In this document: positions 3,720 through 12,419 of the stretch, one piece after another | Numbering within the stretch: position 1 is the stretch's first letter | How the letters are laid out: each line of letters begins with the position of its first letter | NCBI GenBank assembly: GCA_046726415.1 | Contig: JBKPAK010000238.1 | Location: 1-14,300 of the forward strand | Length of the DNA: 14,300 nt | Source: Candidatus Methylomirabilota bacterium | GTDB lineage: Bacteria; Methylomirabilota; Methylomirabilia; Rokubacteriales; CSP1-6 | Direction: 5' to 3' | The notes under the pieces: model-generated | Database searches by the model: none | Seen by the model: the letters and a program-made list of their open reading frames with translations, nothing else | Told to the model about the DNA's origin: nothing | Position numbers and translations under genes: made by a program

Positions 3720-4523
3720 TCAGGTCAGACCGAGGACGTCCTGCATCGAATACAGCCCGGGGGGCCGATCGGCCAGCCAGCGGGCCGCCCGTATGGCGCC
3801 GCGCGCAAAGGTGTCGCGGCTGTGCGCCCGATGGGTCAATTCGATCCGCTCGCCCAGCGTGCCAAATGACACGGTGTGCTCACCGACCACGTCGCCGGAG
3901 CGCAGGGACATGACGGCGATCTCTCGCCGGGTGCGCTCGCCGGGATGGCCTTGGCGTCCGTACACGGCCACCGAAGAGAAATCGCGACCCAGCGCCTCCG
4001 CGATGACCTCCCCCATGCGGAGCGCGGTTCCGCTGGGGGCATCCTTCTTGAAGCGATGGTGCGTCTCCACGATCTCGATGTCGTAGTCATCGCCGAGCGC
4101 GCGGGCCATCGTGGCGAGCAACGAGAAGGCAAGGGTGACCGCGACCGACATGTTCGGGGCGAGCAAGATCGCAGCCCGCCGGCCGAGGGTGGCGATCTCC
4201 TCGCGCTGGGCGCGACTGAAACCCGTGGTGCCGATCACCGCCCGCGCCCCGGCCGCCTCCACCAGCCGAAGGTGGGCGAGACTCGCTTCGGGGATGGAGA
4301 ATTCGATGAGAAGTCGCCCGCCCGTGATGGCGGCGGCCGCGTCGCTGGCAATGGGCACTCCGCGGGTACCGATTCCAGCCACCTCGCCGGCGTCGCGGCC
4401 GATGGCCGGTTGGCCGGGCGCCTCCAGAGCACCGACCAGGCGAAGATCATCGGCCTCGGTCAGACAGGCCACGAGACGGGACCCCATGCGGCCGGCGGCG
4501 CCGGCGACCACCACGTCGGTCAT
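3720..4523 (-). CDS. dapB: 4-hydroxy-tetrahydrodipicolinate reductase
   Basis: GAAGRMG, IGTTGF, APNMS, ETHHRFKKDAPSGTA, GEHTV, FARGA motifs. Confidence 0.97.
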   Translation of the reverse strand: MTDVVVAGAAGRMGSRLVACLTEADDLRLVGALEAPGQPAIGRDAGEVAGIGTRGVPIASDAAAAITGGRLLIEFSIPEASLAHLRLVEAAGARAVIGTTGFSRAQREEIATLGRRAAILLAPNMSVAVTLAFSLLATMARALGDDYDIEIVETHHRFKKDAPSGTALRMGEVIAEALGRDFSSVAVYGRQGHPGERTRREIAVMSLRSGDVVGEHTVSFGTLGERIELTHRAHSRDTFARGAIRAARWLADRPPGLYSMQDVLGLT

Positions 4524-4533
4524 AGCACTGCGG

Positions 4534-5418
4534 TTATTTCACGAGACCGTACGACTCCAGGATGCCGAGCAGCTTCTCGCGGTTGGCCTCGCCCATGCGG
4601 CACATGGGCAGGCGAAACTCCGGCTCGAGCATCCCGGCCATCGCCATTGCTTCCTTGATGGGGATTGGATTCGTCTCGAGGAAGGCCGCACGCGCCAGCG
4701 GGAAGAGCTTGTAGTGCAGCTCGCGCGCGCGCTTCCAGTCGCCGTCGAGCGCGGCGTGCACCATCTCCGCCGTTTCGCGCGGCACGATGTTGGCGATCAC
4801 GGAGATGACGCCGCGTCCCCCGATTGCCAGGAGCGGGAGCGTGATGTTGTCATCGCCGGAGAGCACGGAGAAATTCGGTCCGCAGGCCAGGATGACCTGG
4901 CTCATCTGATCCAGCGAGCCCGAGGCTTCCTTGACCCCTACGACGTTCCTGCAGTCGCGGGCGAGCCGGGCGAGCGTGTCTGTCTCCACGTTCACCGCGG
5001 TGCGGCTCTGGATGTTGTAGAGCAGGATGGGAATGGACGTGCTCTCGGCCACCGCCCGGAAGTGCTCGTACAACCCCCGCTGGGTTGGCTTGTTGTAATA
5101 CGGGTTCACGACCAAGGCGCCGGCGGCGCCCGCTCGCTCCGCGTGCCGGGTGAGATCGATGGCTTCCGCAGTGGAGTTGGAACCCGTTCCCGCGATGACG
5201 GGGATGCGCTTGCGCGCGGCGTCCACCACGATCTCGACCACATGCTTGTGCTCGTCGTGGCTCAGGGTTGGGGACTCACCGGTCGTACCGCAAGGGATGA
5301 GCGCATCGGTTCCGTGCCCGACGTGGAACTCGACGAGTTCCCGCAGCTTGGTGTCGTCGATCTGTCCGTGCCTGAACGGGGTTACCAGCGCCACAAACGA
5401 GCCCTGAAATGGCGTCAT
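4534..5418 (-). CDS. dapA: 4-hydroxy-tetrahydrodipicolinate synthase
   Basis: ALVTPF, GTTGESPTL, PYYNKPTQ, LYNI..RT, Schiff-base GVKEASG, SGDD, NPIPIK. Start ATG 5418 follows a GGGGAG Shine-Dalgarno; 294 aa. Confidence 0.97.
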   Translation of the reverse strand: MTPFQGSFVALVTPFRHGQIDDTKLRELVEFHVGHGTDALIPCGTTGESPTLSHDEHKHVVEIVVDAARKRIPVIAGTGSNSTAEAIDLTRHAERAGAAGALVVNPYYNKPTQRGLYEHFRAVAESTSIPILLYNIQSRTAVNVETDTLARLARDCRNVVGVKEASGSLDQMSQVILACGPNFSVLSGDDNITLPLLAIGGRGVISVIANIVPRETAEMVHAALDGDWKRARELHYKLFPLARAAFLETNPIPIKEAMAMAGMLEPEFRLPMCRMGEANREKLLGILESYGLVK

Positions 5419-5526
5419 CCTGTCGTCTCCCCGCCACTGGGACCTCGGCGGTCTGCCGGCGGCGCACTGGCTCATGATGGCCAAAAGATCACCAGCGCCC
5501 CGCGACACGCGTTCGCGCGAGCGCTC

Positions 5527-5546
5527 CCCTCTCCATGGGGGGAGGG
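5527..5546. repeat. Short GC-rich hairpin, REP-like (CCCTCTCC-ATGG-GGGGAGGG)
   Basis: 8-bp inverted repeat with one imperfect pair in the lipoprotein-dapA spacer. Resembles CCCTCTCCC..GGGAGAGGG-type intergenic palindromes. Single copy in this window. Confidence 0.4.
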
Positions 5547-5588
5547 TATCCATGTGCGCGTAAAGTCTGGCATTCGGCCCCGGTGAAG

Positions 5589-6656
5589 TCAAGGAACGCT
5601 GACGCTCGCCTCGTTAGAGTGGGCGCTCTCGTTGGCCCGCGAGCTGCCATCCTGGGCGGTCACCACGTATCGATAGCTTGCCGGCGCGACGCCCCGGTCC
5701 ACCAGGGTGGTGGCCGGGGCCGCGATAGAGCCCACGCGGGTGAATGTCCCCCGCGGATCAGCGCGATATACGACGTAGCGAGCGACGTCGGGATCTGGGC
5801 TCGCCGTCCACGAAAGCCGCACGTCCCCGGCGGCGGCAATCGCCACCAGGTCGCGCGGCGGTGCGGGTGGCGTGACGTCCACCGGGGTGGCCGTGATTCT
5901 CGCTGAGGGCGCGCCACGGGCGCTTCCGCCTTCATCCGCGCGGAGGGCCCGCACGGCATACGTGTACGTTTGGTCGTTGACGAGGCCGCGATCCACGAAG
6001 GTCGTCCCGCTGACGGGCGAGGGTGTGATCGGTTCCGGCGTTCCCTCCGCGCCGGCGGCGCGGAGCACTTCGTAGCTCAGCGTTCCCGTGACGGGATTTC
6101 CGTCCACGAGCTGGGCGGGCCGATCCCAGCGGAGCCGGACCTCGCCCTCTCCCGGCGTGGCCTCGACATCCTGAGGCGGGCCCGGCGGGGCGATGTAGGT
6201 CACGGACAGTCGGGTGGAAGGTGGGCTCACCCGGCCCTCTTTGTCCTCGACGAGCACCACGTACGTGTAGCGGCGGCCGTACGCCAATCCCTGCCGGTCG
6301 GGAAGCGCGACGCGCGAGCCGTCGACGGTGGCGGGCGCCGGGGCGGCCATCGGGACGCTGGCGATCTCCTCGTAGCCGGCGATTCGTCCACGACTCCGCA
6401 ACGCGGATTTGGGCTCACCCGTTCCGGCGTCGTCGACGCGAAACACGTGAGCGACGGCGAGATCGCGGATCACCGTGCCGTCGACGCGCCGCGTGGGATT
6501 GGTCCAGCTCAGCTCGATGAGCCCGTCGCCCGCCACCGCGTTCAACTCGGAGACCGGCAGGGGTTCGCGAAGCTGGGGCGCGACCGGCGGCCCCACCTTT
6601 CCGCAGGCGACGAGAAGGAGGAGAGTGGCGGCGGCGCCGAGGGCGCGCGCCGTCAC
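5589..6656 (-). CDS. Lipoprotein with about 3 fibronectin type III domains
   Basis: Signal peptide II with lipobox LLVA-C (Cys18), then GKVGPPVAP. Repeated FN3 signatures (IELSW, VRLRW, VRLSW; YTYVV, YTYAV, YRYVV). GTG start overlaps the argH stop (GTGA). Confidence 0.85.
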   Translation of the reverse strand: MTARALGAAATLLLLVACGKVGPPVAPQLREPLPVSELNAVAGDGLIELSWTNPTRRVDGTVIRDLAVAHVFRVDDAGTGEPKSALRSRGRIAGYEEIASVPMAAPAPATVDGSRVALPDRQGLAYGRRYTYVVLVEDKEGRVSPPSTRLSVTYIAPPGPPQDVEATPGEGEVRLRWDRPAQLVDGNPVTGTLSYEVLRAAGAEGTPEPITPSPVSGTTFVDRGLVNDQTYTYAVRALRADEGGSARGAPSARITATPVDVTPPAPPRDLVAIAAAGDVRLSWTASPDPDVARYVVYRADPRGTFTRVGSIAAPATTLVDRGVAPASYRYVVTAQDGSSRANESAHSNEASVSVP

Positions 6657-9042: not shown

Positions 9043-10044
9043 TTAGCCCCGTGGGCGCGTCAGGCGATAGCGGGTGACCGCGGCGTTGTGCTGCTCCAAG
9101 GTGGTCGAAAACTCGTGGCGCCGGTCGTCCATCGCGACGAAATAGAGGTACGGAACGGGAGCGGGGTCCAGCACCGCCTCGATGGACGACATTCCGGGGC
9201 TGGCGATTGGCCCGGGAGGCAGCCCGGGTTGGCGGTAGGTGTTGTAGGGATGGTCGGTATCGAGGTCGGCCCGCGTGAGCGTTCCACGCTGCCGGCGGAC
9301 GGCGTACTGGACCGTCGGGTCCGCCTGGAGGGGCATCGCGCGCTGGAGGCGGTTCCAGAAGACCGCCGCGATGAGTCGACGCTCCTCCGGCACCACAGCT
9401 TCCCGCTCCACGATGGAGGCCAGGGTGAGAAGCTGATGCACGCTCATCCCGCGCGCGGCGGCCCGGGCCACGATGTCCGGCGTGAGCTTCGTCCGCAGCC
9501 GCTGGACCATCCGGGTCAGGATCTCCTCCGGGGTCATGCCCCGCACGAACTGATAGGTGTCGGGAAAGAGATAACCCTCCAGGCGGGGAGCGTCGACCGC
9601 AAGGGTCCGGAGGAAGGGGGGGTCGCTGGCCGCCCGCTCGATGCCGTCGGCCGATGCGAGCCGCGACGCCTCCAGCGCACGCGCCAGCTCGGCCACCGTC
9701 GCACCTTCCGGATGGAGCACGACGTGCTGTCGCACCACGCCCGCCGCGATCCTCGACAGTACCGCGGGTGTGGCGGCTCCCTGTGGGAACTCGTACTCCC
9801 CGGGTTTGAGTCGGCGGGCCTGGCCGCCCAGCACGCTCAGGGCCATGAAGCCGACCGGGCTCCGAATCACCCCCGCCGCGCGCAGACGCTCGGCGATCGC
9901 GCGTAGACCCTCGTGCGGAGGGATCTCGACCACTCGGGGACCCCCCTCGATAGCGGCCGTCGGCGTGAACACCCGCCAGGCCTCGATGGCCAGGGCGACC
10001 ATGCCGAGGGCGAGGAGGGCTCCTAGCGCGACCCGCCACCGCAT
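9043..10044 (-). CDS. mltG: Endolytic transglycosylase MltG (YceG family)
   Basis: N-terminal TM, LKPGEY, LEGYLFPDTY, catalytic LASIVERE, NRL...LQADPTVQY, PYNTY..PGLPPGPIASPG, YLYFVA. Confidence 0.96.
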   Translation of the reverse strand: MRWRVALGALLALGMVALAIEAWRVFTPTAAIEGGPRVVEIPPHEGLRAIAERLRAAGVIRSPVGFMALSVLGGQARRLKPGEYEFPQGAATPAVLSRIAAGVVRQHVVLHPEGATVAELARALEASRLASADGIERAASDPPFLRTLAVDAPRLEGYLFPDTYQFVRGMTPEEILTRMVQRLRTKLTPDIVARAAARGMSVHQLLTLASIVEREAVVPEERRLIAAVFWNRLQRAMPLQADPTVQYAVRRQRGTLTRADLDTDHPYNTYRQPGLPPGPIASPGMSSIEAVLDPAPVPYLYFVAMDDRRHEFSTTLEQHNAAVTRYRLTRPRG

Positions 10045-10053
10045 GATTCGTCG

Positions 10054-10059
10054 AGTCTA
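10054..10059 (-). promoter_or_regulatory. Putative -10 hexamer (TAGACT) for mltG
   Basis: TAGACT ends 9 nt upstream of the mltG ATG; no Shine-Dalgarno is visible. Confidence 0.4.
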
Positions 10060-10087
10060 CATAGGGTGGGCCGCGGCGCGCCAGCTT

Positions 10088-10096
10088 TGTTATACT
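10088..10096 (+). promoter_or_regulatory. Extended -10 promoter (TGtTATACT) for rpoA
   Basis: Near-consensus TGnTATAAT match in the 97-bp divergent mltG/rpoA spacer, with no recognisable -35. Followed by a hairpin (10104-10120) and SD AAGGGGG (10130-10136). Confidence 0.65.
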
Positions 10097-10141
10097 GCGG
10101 GGTCGGGGCTTGGCGCCCCGGAATTCCTCAAGGGGGTCTTC

Positions 10142-11137
10142 ATGTTGGAGCTTGAGCTCCCCACCCGTCACGAATGGATCGCCCAGGAGCCGACCTACGG
10201 CAAGCTGGCCATCGACGCCTTCGAGGCGGGCTTTGCCCTGACCGTCGGCAATGCCTACCGCCGCGTGCTGCTGTCCGCGATCCACGGAGCGGCTCCGACC
10301 TGGGTGAAGATCGCGGGGGTCCTCCACGAGTTCTCGCACCTGCCGGGCGTGACCGAGGATACCCTCGACATCATGCTCAATCTCCGGAAGGTGGTCTTCA
10401 AGCTCCACGTGAACCGGCCTAAAATCTTGCGCCTAAAGGCCCAAGGGGTCGGCCTGGTCAAGGCGGGGGACTTCGAGGCCGATGCCGACGCGGAGATCCT
10501 CACCCCAGACATCGTGCTAGCCACGCTTGACAAGGACGGCTCGGTCGAGATGGAGGTCTGCGTCGAACGGGGGCGGGGCTACGCGGCCGCCGAGAAACGC
10601 GAGCCAGAGGCGCTCCCCATCCATGCCATTCTCCTCGACGCCGACTTCTCGCCCGTCACGCGGGTAAACCAGCATGTGGAGGAGTTGGAGGATGGGCGCG
10701 AGCGTTTGATCCTGGAGGTGTGGACCAACGGCGCTGTCACGCCGGCGGTGGCGGTGGCCGAGGCCTCTCGGCTGCTCGAGGACCATTTCGACCTCTTGAC
10801 CGAGTTCCCCGACGCAGCGCCGCCCGAGGAGACTGTGGAGGTGGGGGAAGAACCCCGCCCGCGCGCGGAGCTGAACGAAAACCTCTTCCGCAATGTAGAC
10901 GAGCTGGAGCTGTCCGTCCGGGCTTCCAACTGCCTCAAGACCGCCAACATCCGGACTATCGCGGACTTGGTGCAGAAGTCGGAGTCCGAGCTGCTCAAGA
11001 CCAAGAACTTCGGCAAGAAGTCCCTCAACGAGATCAAAACCATTCTGGGTGAGATGGGGCTAGCCCTGGGCATGCGGCTCGATCCCGAGGAGCTGGAGCG
11101 CCTGCGGGCCCAGTTCGAGAAGGCGTTCGAGGGGTAG
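10142..11137 (+). CDS. rpoA: DNA-directed RNA polymerase subunit alpha (stand-alone, divergent NTD)
   Basis: GNAYRRVLLS, GVLHEFS..PGV.ED, RGRGY, LDADFSPV, LEVWTNG; CTD VDELELSVRASNCLK...ELLKTKNFGKKSLNEI. Start ATG 10142 after an SD; 331 aa. Confidence 0.96.
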   Translation: MLELELPTRHEWIAQEPTYGKLAIDAFEAGFALTVGNAYRRVLLSAIHGAAPTWVKIAGVLHEFSHLPGVTEDTLDIMLNLRKVVFKLHVNRPKILRLKAQGVGLVKAGDFEADADAEILTPDIVLATLDKDGSVEMEVCVERGRGYAAAEKREPEALPIHAILLDADFSPVTRVNQHVEELEDGRERLILEVWTNGAVTPAVAVAEASRLLEDHFDLLTEFPDAAPPEETVEVGEEPRPRAELNENLFRNVDELELSVRASNCLKTANIRTIADLVQKSESELLKTKNFGKKSLNEIKTILGEMGLALGMRLDPEELERLRAQFEKAFEG

Positions 11138-11186
11138 GCGATCGAGCGCGCTCAGCGTTCGAGGGGCAGGCGAGGGAGCGCGCTCA
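11123..11186. repeat. 32-bp tandem duplication at the convergent rpoA/dapL junction
   Basis: 11123-11154 gcgttcgaggggtaggcgatcgagcgcgctca versus 11155-11186 gcgttcgaggggcaggcgagggagcgcgctca (29/32 identical). Each copy contains the palindrome GAGCGCGCTC. Confidence 0.9.
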
Positions 11187-12419
11187 GAGCCTGATCTGAC
11201 TCTTGATCCGCGCCACGGCCTCCTCCGTCTGCTCGCGCCCTCCGAATGCGGTGAGGCGGAAGTACCCCTCGCCGCTGGGCCCGAAGCCGGAGCCGGGCGT
11301 GCCAACGACATGGGCTTCGCCCAGGAGCTTGTCGAAGAAGTCCCAAGAAGACAGCCCGGCCGGGGTCTTGATCCAGATGTACGGTGCGTTGCGCCCCCCG
11401 TACACCGTCAGTCCCGCCGCCTCCACGCCTTCGCGAATGATCCGGGCATTATCCATGTAGAAGTCGACCAGGGTCCGCGCTTGGCGCTGCCCCTCGTCGG
11501 TGTAGACGGCGGCCGCGCCGCGTTGGATCACGTACGGCACGCCATTGAACTTGGTTGATTGACGGCGGAGCCACAGTGCATGCAGCTCCACGGCATCACC
11601 GACCGCAGTCCGCCCCACGACGTCTTTGGGCACCACCGTGAACGCGCAGCGGGTGCCGGTGAAACCGGCCGTCTTGGAGAAGCTCCGAAACTCGATGGCC
11701 ACCTCGCGCGCGCCTTCGACCTCGAAGATGGAGTGGGGGATGTCGGGATCGCGGATGTACGCCTCATAGGCCGCGTCGTAGAGCAGGATGGCGCCGTTCT
11801 CGCGCGCGTAGTCCACCCAGCGCTTGAGGGTAGTCCGGCTCATCACCGCGCCGGTCGGGTTGTTCGGGTAGCAGAGGTAGATGAGGTCGACCATGTCCGC
11901 GGGGAGGGCCGGCAGGAACTCGGTGTCGGCCGTGCACGGCAAATAGACGAACCGCTCGTAGCGCCCCGTCTCATCGGCATGGCCGGAGCGTCCGGCCATG
12001 ACGTTGCTGTCGACATAGACGGGGTACACCGGGTCGGTCAGGGCCACCACGGACTCCACTGAAAAGATCTCCTGAATGTTCCCGCTGTCGCTCTTGGCGC
12101 CGTCGCTCACGAAGATCTCGTCGGGGGCGATCGACACGCCGCGCGTCGCGTAGTCGTGCTTGGCGATCAGTTCGGTGAGGAACTCGTACCCGGGCTCGGG
12201 CCCGTACCCCCGGAATGTCTCGGGACGCGCCATCTCGTCGACGGCTTCGTGTAGTGCCCAGATCACCGCCGGCGGCAGTGGCCGAGTGACGTCGCCGATG
12301 CCGAGGCGGATGATCTTCGCGGAGGGGTGGGCGTCCTGAAAGGCCTTCACGCGCCGGGCGATCTCCGTGAAGAGGTAGCTGCTCTTGAGCTTCAGGTAGT
12401 GCTCGTTGATGCGCGCCAC
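11184..12419 (-). CDS. dapL: LL-diaminopimelate aminotransferase
   Basis: [56 protein letters not shown] lysine motif [29 protein letters not shown] at 12428-12433. Confidence 0.96.

Follow-up and report, generated by a model that had tools for sequence, protein, structure and literature searches.

Bacterial RNA polymerase (RNAP) is commonly described as an alpha2-beta-beta'-omega assembly whose two alpha subunits are identical. To our knowledge, Francisella provides the one demonstrated case in which RNAP carries an alpha heterodimer. Here we describe a candidate for a second case, centered on an rpoA gene located at positions 10142-11137 (+) of a 14.3-kb contig (JBKPAK010000238.1, assembly GCA_046726415.1) from a Rokubacteria-type member of the phylum Methylomirabilota. 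The contig was analyzed over its whole length and is called the window. The gene, which resides outside the ribosomal protein operon, is called the orphan or rpoA2, and its product alpha-2; the alpha encoded within the ribosomal operon of the same genome is called the operon copy or alpha-1.

The sections of the Francisella report on which we draw place rpoA1 in the ribosomal operon and rpoA2 elsewhere, and describe an oriented alpha heterodimer in RNAP (PMC3294249). The same sections mention rpoA duplications in Chloroflexus spp., Streptomyces avermitilis, Psychromonas ingrahamii, and Leptospira borgpetersenii. The Psychromonas and Leptospira copies are identical and reflect recent segment duplications, the Chloroflexus copies carry no drastic substitutions in the dimerization or beta/beta' regions, and further rpoA duplications are predicted (PMC3294249). 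Our literature searches yielded no paper combining Rokubacteria with rpoA, or Rokubacteria with “RNA polymerase” and “alpha subunit.” A search on rpoA duplication returned Francisella work, plastid cases, and unrelated matches in those portions of the records that were available.

The gene pair examined herein resembles that of Francisella in several respects. The two rpoA genes are non-identical, and only one of them resides in the ribosomal operon. They appear to derive from a lineage-specific duplication after which both copies evolved at an accelerated rate, a placement to which long-branch attraction may contribute here. In addition, determinants for contacting beta and beta' have changed asymmetrically, and only a single beta and a single beta' are encoded. 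Unlike the other reported duplications, the two copies have only 42% identity, exhibit reciprocal losses, and are conserved as a pair across an order.

The window is an entire contig (C238) of a 7.6-Mb metagenome-assembled genome (MAG) in 352 contigs, for which completeness is 98% and contamination is estimated at 4.66%. Searching this genome with the alpha model TIGR02027 revealed two genes, namely the orphan (312.6 bits) and a second gene at C112:57040-57906 (285.7 bits). These are also exactly the genes matched by PF03118, the model for the alpha C-terminal domain (CTD). The second gene, whose full reading frame spans C112:57019-57999 on the minus strand (L005:8987-9967), sits in the arrangement rplO-secY-adk-map-infA-rpsM-rpsK-rpsD-rpoA-rplQ, in which rpsM to rplQ form the usual operon, and encodes an intact alpha of 326 amino acids with all three alpha domains, which is 42% identical to the orphan protein. 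The genes rpoB and rpoC give one match each and adjoin on another contig (C113:3622-12033), and therefore both alphas must serve the same beta and beta'. An initial annotation of the window had considered either a second alpha paralog or a sole rpoA that has been relocated, and had proposed a count of copies with profile hidden Markov models, inspection of the rpsD-rplQ interval, an alpha tree, and estimates of the ratio of nonsynonymous to synonymous substitution (dN/dS). The count and the interval reveal two copies, one of which lies between rpsD and rplQ. Thus, the first option is right, and a sole relocated rpoA is ruled out by the second gene in the ribosomal operon.

Translation of positions 10142-11137 gives 331 amino acids without an internal stop, ending at a TAG codon at 11135-11137. 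The N-terminal domain (NTD), which serves in assembly, spans approximately residues 1-225 (10142..10816, +), where a PF01193 match (59.4 bits, residues 28-216) is interrupted by a PF01000 match (102.5 bits, residues 55-170). The CTD is matched by PF03118 at residues 244-303 (10871..11050 of C238, +) with 90.5 bits. The whole protein exceeds the curated cut-offs of three equivalog models: TIGR02027 (312.5 versus 227.8 bits), NF003513 (366.2 versus 302 bits), and NF003519 (325.9 versus 277 bits). The gene is full-length and intact, as the initial annotation had it, and, judged by its domains, its whole-protein score, and its key residues, the predicted product is a bacterial RpoA. Like canonical alphas that form homodimers, such as those of E. 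coli K-12 (L156) and the sister orders (L136-L145), it has the three domains and equivalog scores, and it keeps R44/R45 (E. coli numbering) and six residues of the “265 determinant” discussed below. Unlike these, it is encoded outside the ribosomal operon by an apparently monocistronic gene alongside an operon paralog, it lacks the loop at E. coli 191-198, and it scores approximately 312 bits compared to approximately 359-407 bits for the sister-order proteins.

Given the fragmentation of the assembly, its estimated contamination, and the fact that the window is a whole contig, the second gene might in principle be an artefact, with one true rpoA joined by a contaminating, chimeric, or recently acquired sequence. 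However, both copies share one contig in four relatives (G002 C19, G036 C2, G038 C22, and G040 C21, with contexts checked), and in G002 a distance of 293 kb separates them on a contig of 926 kb. The same orphan context is also present on contigs as long as 3.0 and 4.05 Mb. The GC content of C238 (0.680) matches that of the genome (0.675 +/- 0.012 for 346 contigs >5 kb), as does its tetranucleotide profile (correlation of 0.990 versus a median of 0.992). Moreover, the nearest relative of each copy is the matching copy of G002. Among 1.84 billion representative proteins, the nearest full-length ones include one at 69% identity followed by others at 50-52%; all full-length representatives outside the clade are at most 52% identical, and no outside donor for the orphan was seen in this set. 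We therefore regard an artefact as extremely improbable. Rather than the single copy, decaying gene, or chimeric contig that could have undermined the original proposal, we find two intact copies, purifying selection as described below, and pairs located on one contig.

The presence of two alpha genes is not a peculiarity of this genome. At least two TIGR02027 matches occur in 35 of its 40 nearest relatives. We also scanned 170 genomes of the phylum that are at least 85% complete, a set that includes the genome of the window (G000) and five unpublished genomes (G011, G066, G073, G091, and G171). With G000 excluded, the order of the window is represented by families f1, f4, and f5 with 123 genomes, of which 105 have at least two matches, 16 have one, and 2 have none; these are numbers of matches and not strict copy numbers. 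By family, at least two matches occur in 90 of 107 genomes (f1), 14 of 15 (f4), and 1 of 1 (f5). In the other families of the class (f6-f13), only 5 of 46 genomes have at least two matches, while 40 have one and 1 has none.

Nine of the single-match genomes in the order were probed further. Four of these (G102, G113, G011, and G147) carry only the orphan and lack rpsD as well, and four others (G137, G175, G125, and G091) carry only the operon copy and lack mltG, the usual neighbor of the orphan. In the ninth (G027), mltG ends approximately 150 nucleotides from the end of a contig. Because a neighboring gene is also absent or is located at a contig end, the missing copies are best explained as assembly gaps, and these nine genomes gave no demonstrated loss of either copy within families f1 and f4. 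The single-copy alphas of the sister orders (L136-L145), which reside in the operon, reach approximately 359-407 bits with TIGR02027, compared to approximately 312-335 bits for orphan-type and 275-305 bits for full-length operon-type copies. Both paralogs therefore have diverged. The alpha pair is almost certainly conserved across this order of Rokubacteria-type MAGs, with the orphan as a functional paralog.

Of the genomes with two matches outside the order (five in total), we inspected G074, which belongs to a sister order. It has two full-length rpoA genes approximately 4 kb apart, at L141:3546-4601 (-) and L141:7515-8525 (-). The extra copy adjoins rpsK, and no rpsK occupies the usual position between rpsM and rpsD. 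In the tree described below, this copy diverges basally in the sister-order clade on a long branch (0.84). An independent duplication or rearrangement could account for the pair, as could a misassembly.

The proposed tree was built from 66 sequences, comprising 16 orphan, 14 operon, and 11 sister-order alphas, the ordinary operon alpha L115, and 24 representatives (every fourth of 96 with lengths of 310-350 amino acids); the other representatives and orphan loci were omitted. The orphan and operon clades are supported at 100/100 and 100/99, respectively, and unite with 95/85 support, their stems measuring 0.51 and 0.36. The two subtrees are mirror images, each separating f3+f4 from f5+f1. Summed from the duplication node to the tips of G000, branch lengths amount to 1.01 (orphan) and 1.50 (operon copy). 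The topology makes a duplication within the lineage likely, after which one copy would have moved beside mltG and the other would have stayed in the ancestral operon.

Estimates of dN/dS by the Nei-Gojobori method for close genome pairs are approximate, since dS ranges from 0.38 to 1.35 and some pairs are near saturation. For the whole gene, the values are 0.04-0.27 for the orphan (8 pairs) and 0.08-0.32 for the operon copy (9 pairs). For the CTD, they are 0-0.06 (8 pairs) and 0.04-0.21 (6 pairs), respectively. Both copies are under purifying selection, and neither is decaying as a gene.

According to the sections of the Francisella report cited above, beta protects residues 30-55 and 65-75 of E. 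coli alpha, beta' protects residues 175-185 and 195-210, R45 is required for beta binding, and beta' binding is affected by K86, V173, and insertions at 180 and 200 (PMC3294249). We aligned 92 distinct orphan-type, 22 operon-type, and 10 sister-order alphas with L115, merging identical sequences and adding E. coli K-12 RpoA for numbering. The fragmentary or atypical sequences L015, L101, L104, L113, L135, and the extra copy of G074 were dropped.

Residues R44 and R45 (R40-R41 of the window protein; 10259..10264, +) are invariant in both paralogs (92/92 orphans and 22/22 operon copies). The sequence LHEFS at E. coli positions 65-69, which lies within the beta-protected segment 65-75 and corresponds to residues 61-65 of the window protein (10322..10336, +), is invariant in all 92 orphans, and its H, E, F, and S are present in 11/11 outgroup sequences, while the operon copies show no consensus in this stretch. 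The opposite pattern is observed at positions 191-201. Here R191, L192, G193, D197, Y198, E199, and L201 are found in 22/22 operon copies and K200 in 21/22. This stretch is conserved in the outgroup too, and the loop formed by 191-198 is invariant in the sister orders. In the orphans, however, this loop is shortened and variable, and residues 181-188 of the window protein (10682..10705, +) stand in place of the ancestral R-V/L-G-x-x-T-D-Y. Likewise, position 86 is R in 89/92 orphans and K in 20/22 operon copies.

An unbiased scan for asymmetry, conducted on 205 seven-column segments of the NTD in 17 matched genome pairs, returned the same two regions. The strongest segment in which the operon copy is more variable is E. 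coli 64-70 (z = 2.9), and the strongest in which the orphan is more variable is 191-198 (z = -3.2). These fall in or beside the beta-protected segment 65-75 and the beta'-protected segment 195-210. We infer that the orphan has kept its beta-side determinants and relaxed a beta'-side determinant, and that the operon copy has done the reverse. Dimer helix H1 also carries fixed differences between orphan and operon copies at position 35 (F/Y) and position 43 (Y/F versus L), and in family f1 at position 50 (A/S versus I). These differences are suggestive only. On the basis of these patterns, we think it probable, with some reservation, that the two alphas form one oriented heterodimer, like that of Francisella and of independent origin. 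We are more tentative about placing the orphan specifically on beta, an orientation that falls slightly short of an even chance.

The CTDs differ between the two copies as well. Identity to the CTDs of the sister orders is 70% for the orphan and 44% for the operon copy. We take the 265 determinant of E. coli to be R265, N268, C269, G296, K298, and S299, and all six of these residues are kept in 92/92 orphans, including the window protein. Among the 14 operon copies with a CTD, R, G, and K persist in every sequence, 13 have S, and 12 have N; in addition, 12 have A in place of C269 and 9 have P in place of E261. The other 8 of the 22 operon copies have no CTD. These proteins are 237-255 amino acids long and end just before rplQ, and in all eight PF01193 and PF01000 are matched and PF03118 is absent. 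Seven come from f4 and one from f3, and the orphan is therefore the only source of an alpha CTD in those genomes.

Three representative proteins retrieved in our searches have repeated matches. P0008, an unnamed protein of 1031 amino acids, contains 12 matched stretches, with the best-scoring one corresponding to the CTD region of the query. Two alpha-like stretches each are present in P0006 (569 amino acids) and P0009 (526 amino acids).

One alternative is that the orphan, as a homodimer, is the sole working alpha. The operon copy then would be a remnant that is decaying or has been repurposed, for instance as an assembly factor or regulator, or that persists solely to preserve the structure of the operon. 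This would accord with the higher scores of the orphan on every alpha model (for TIGR02027 as given above), its greater CTD identity to sister-order alphas, the longer path of the operon copy in the tree, and the loss of the CTD from the operon copy in f3 and f4. However, the operon copy is intact in 22/22 examined sequences and has the low dN/dS values listed above. It also retains invariant segments, including R44/R45, a motif around E. coli position 35, and R191 to L201, while the orphan itself has lost an ancestral and otherwise invariant loop. We consider this explanation improbable.

Another possibility is that two alternative homodimeric cores, (alpha-1)2-beta-beta' and (alpha-2)2-beta-beta', are used according to condition or promoter set, with the separate promoter of the orphan uncoupling its level from ribosomal protein synthesis. 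Both paralogs retain R44/R45 and a largely hydrophobic dimer interface, the orphan has a conserved promoter-like motif of its own (see below), and the CTD differences at C269 and E261 could alter specificity for activators or UP elements. Such an arrangement nevertheless is unlikely, if somewhat less so than the remnant explanation. Given reciprocal decay, either homodimer would have an impaired contact on one side, beta or beta', and the alpha-1 core of f3 and f4 would have no CTD at all. Furthermore, no loss of either copy was demonstrated in the probed genomes, which fits a joint need for the two proteins.

For the oriented heterodimer, we propose the following sequence of events and division of labor. 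Alpha-2 would have arisen when the operon rpoA was duplicated early in the history of this order, and its gene would have remained beside mltG since then. One RNAP core would contain both alphas in a fixed orientation. The orphan, with R45 and LHEFS kept, would occupy the beta-bound (alpha-I) position and would contribute the canonical CTD that binds DNA and activators. The operon copy, with K86 and the 191-200 loop kept, would occupy the beta'-bound (alpha-II) position, and its diverged CTD would be dispensable, because two families have lost it. Transcription of the orphan would proceed from its own extended -10-type promoter, independently of other genes. Families could then represent successive stages, with f2 undecayed, f1 and f5 carrying a diverged CTD, and f3 and f4 carrying none on the operon copy. 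The fullest form of this proposal is an obligate oriented heterodimer in which the relocated gene provides the beta-side subunit plus the only canonical CTD, with a single alpha CTD in f3 and f4 and convergence toward Rpb3/Rpb11. The chances for and against this form appear to us evenly balanced.

Several observations weigh against this proposal. The footprint segments are those of E. coli and were transferred by alignment only, and 191-198 overlaps the 195-210 footprint only partly. Because both paralogs keep R44/R45 and most hydrophobic residues of the dimer interface, homodimers are possible. The counts from the phylum scan are of matches, as noted above. The backbone of the tree is weakly supported (67/67), and long-branch attraction could contribute to the 95/85 join of the two long stems. 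Finally, only one match was found in G025, a 73% complete genome of f2, where the gene is an operon copy (rpsK-rpsD-rpoA-rplQ) and purA rather than rpoA adjoins mltG. Basal within the operon clade, its alpha retains HEFS and the 191-200 loop together with a CTD of ancestral type. Placing it outside the duplication costs 19.7 log-likelihood units and is not rejected (p-AU = 0.09, where AU denotes the approximately unbiased test). Either the duplication predates f2 and the orphan has been lost or was left unassembled there, or f2 represents the pre-duplication state.

If the heterodimer exists, it would differ from that of Francisella in important ways. The Francisella heterodimer is demonstrated, while the one described here is predicted from sequence. 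Ordinary alphas are better matches to the window protein than are Francisella alpha-1 (1.2e-48) and alpha-2 (1.9e-30), represented by PDB chains 6wmp_A and 6wmp_B. These weaker matches, along with the grouping of the two paralogs with each other, argue for an independent origin. R45 is kept in both copies here, whereas Francisella alpha-2 has Q (Q42) at this position in the published material on which we draw. Two further differences are particularly notable. First, the polarity appears to be reversed, since it is the relocated copy that is beta-side-like and carries the ancestral CTD. Second, the operon copy of two families (f3 and f4) has no CTD, which would represent natural loss of one of the two domains.

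The pair also can be compared with archaeal Rpo3/Rpo11 and eukaryotic Rpb3/Rpb11 (AC40/AC19), which the sections of the Francisella report used here describe as two unequal alpha-like subunits with fixed positions (PMC3294249). The operon alpha without a CTD in f3 and f4 creates a comparable asymmetry between a large and a small subunit, but by analogy only. Unlike in Rpo3/Rpo11, the short copy keeps a whole NTD including the insert domain, and the pair derives from a recent bacterial duplication and is not orthologous.

If our proposal is correct, these bacteria would provide a second, independent, and much broader case of an alpha heterodimer, spanning an order of a widespread soil lineage, and duplication followed by reciprocal decay would be a repeatable evolutionary route. 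The families also would serve as natural experiments on which alpha position needs a CTD, and on how UP elements and activators are contacted with one canonical CTD. For annotation purposes, rpoA should not be treated as a single-copy marker in this lineage.

The sequences flanking the orphan are consistent with its separate expression. A Shine-Dalgarno-like AAGGGGG is located 5 nucleotides before the ATG (10130..10136, +), and the start residue is shared by orthologues, in which GGGGG or GGAGG precedes it. Further upstream is an extended -10-like motif, TGTTATACT (10088..10096, +), which is the sole match to TGNTATAMT in the window (0.01 expected) and is accompanied by no -35 match. A TATA(C/A/G)T hexamer occurs 44-84 nucleotides 5' of the ATG in 22/22 orthologous upstream regions, which otherwise have diverged, and is preceded by TGN in 19 of these; the relatives are non-independent, and the hexamer was chosen by pattern. 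A scan of positions 9900-11400 for the sigma-70 -35/-10 consensus returned 0 sites, as did a scan of the same interval for intrinsic terminators. Thus, the claim that the orphan has its own promoter and Shine-Dalgarno sequence holds for the latter and for a conserved extended -10-like motif, but not for a full -35/-10 consensus. These signals fit an extended -10 promoter that would drive a monocistronic gene.

Other potential signals near the gene were less informative. A GC-rich hairpin just after the -10 motif has only three consensus pairs and exhibits no compensatory change among 13 sequences, and therefore is not supported as a structured element, and Rfam gave 0 matches over the window. 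Relative to six ribosomal/IF1 genes, the orphan and the operon copy have codon adaptation indices of 0.650 and 0.654, respectively. Both values fall within the range of ordinary neighbors (0.53-0.70), and this index is therefore uninformative as a proxy for expression.

A soil metatranscriptome (X1) contains 7% of the sampled words, while X4-X6 contain next to none. Contigs of X1 that cover 10868-11105 are mostly 88-95% alike, and therefore come from the conserved CTD of relatives. Two short contigs are near-identical, with one difference each (11009-11106 and 11077-11163), and offer a weak indication of orphan transcription, given that an RNA library can contain DNA.

The location of the orphan is also conserved. 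It is divergent from mltG (YceG family; 9043..10044, -) and convergent with dapL, which encodes LL-diaminopimelate aminotransferase (11184..12419, -). Both neighbors are supported by family matches and synteny, and the strands and coordinates confirm the arrangement given by the initial annotation. None of the family matches in the window corresponds to rpsM, rpsK, rpsD, or rplQ, again as originally reported, or to any other gene for a ribosomal protein. The ten other open reading frames (ORFs) above a curated family cut-off all lie on the minus strand, and their families comprise ComEC, DapL, MltG, an acyltransferase, ArgH, DapA, DapB, FolK, and an extracytoplasmic function (ECF) sigma factor. 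The description of rpoA as the sole plus-strand gene thus holds for genes with family support, while small plus-strand genes that belong to no family may be present.

Among 80 loci retrieved with the window protein as query, mltG is positioned divergently 5' of the orphan in 71, in the arrangement mltG<>rpoA><(dapL)-comEC, and plsC-argH-unk2-dapA-dapB usually precede mltG. On the 3' side, comEC is convergent with the orphan; dapL intervenes in closer relatives only, and elsewhere comEC directly follows rpoA. The nine exceptions comprise six loci with fewer than 900 nucleotides of upstream sequence, the 3.2-kb fragment L104, L091, and L115, which is a 52% identical, ordinary operon rpoA from a MAG labelled Nitrospiraceae. 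This synteny, together with the match in composition between contig and genome, bears out the suggestion that the orphan is a long-term resident. The gene at L091:6001-6990 is an orphan-type rpoA 76% identical to that of the window, with none of the usual neighbors within 6 kb. Its source MAG also has a normal locus (L037), and therefore a third copy or a mixed bin is possible.

Within the 46-nucleotide spacer between the convergent rpoA and dapL genes, no T-tract terminator was found. This spacer has two copies of GAGCGCGCTCAG (11144-11155 and 11176-11187), each of which contains the 10-nucleotide palindrome GAGCGCGCTC, and the second copy overlaps the stop codon of dapL. The lysine-pathway genes dapB and dapA (3720-5592) and dapL (11184-12419) are all located less than 9 kb from the orphan.

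Between dapA and argH is an ORF of 355 amino acids (5589-6656, -) that matches no Pfam family and gives a weak partial match to an exoglucanase model. This ORF is kept at the same position in relatives with 38-66% identity. The ECF sigma factor gene (2259-2771, -) is followed by an ORF for a 231-amino acid protein without a family (1567-2262, -), which is a possible anti-sigma factor, and then by an open-ended ORF of 522 amino acids that likewise has no family (1-1566, -).

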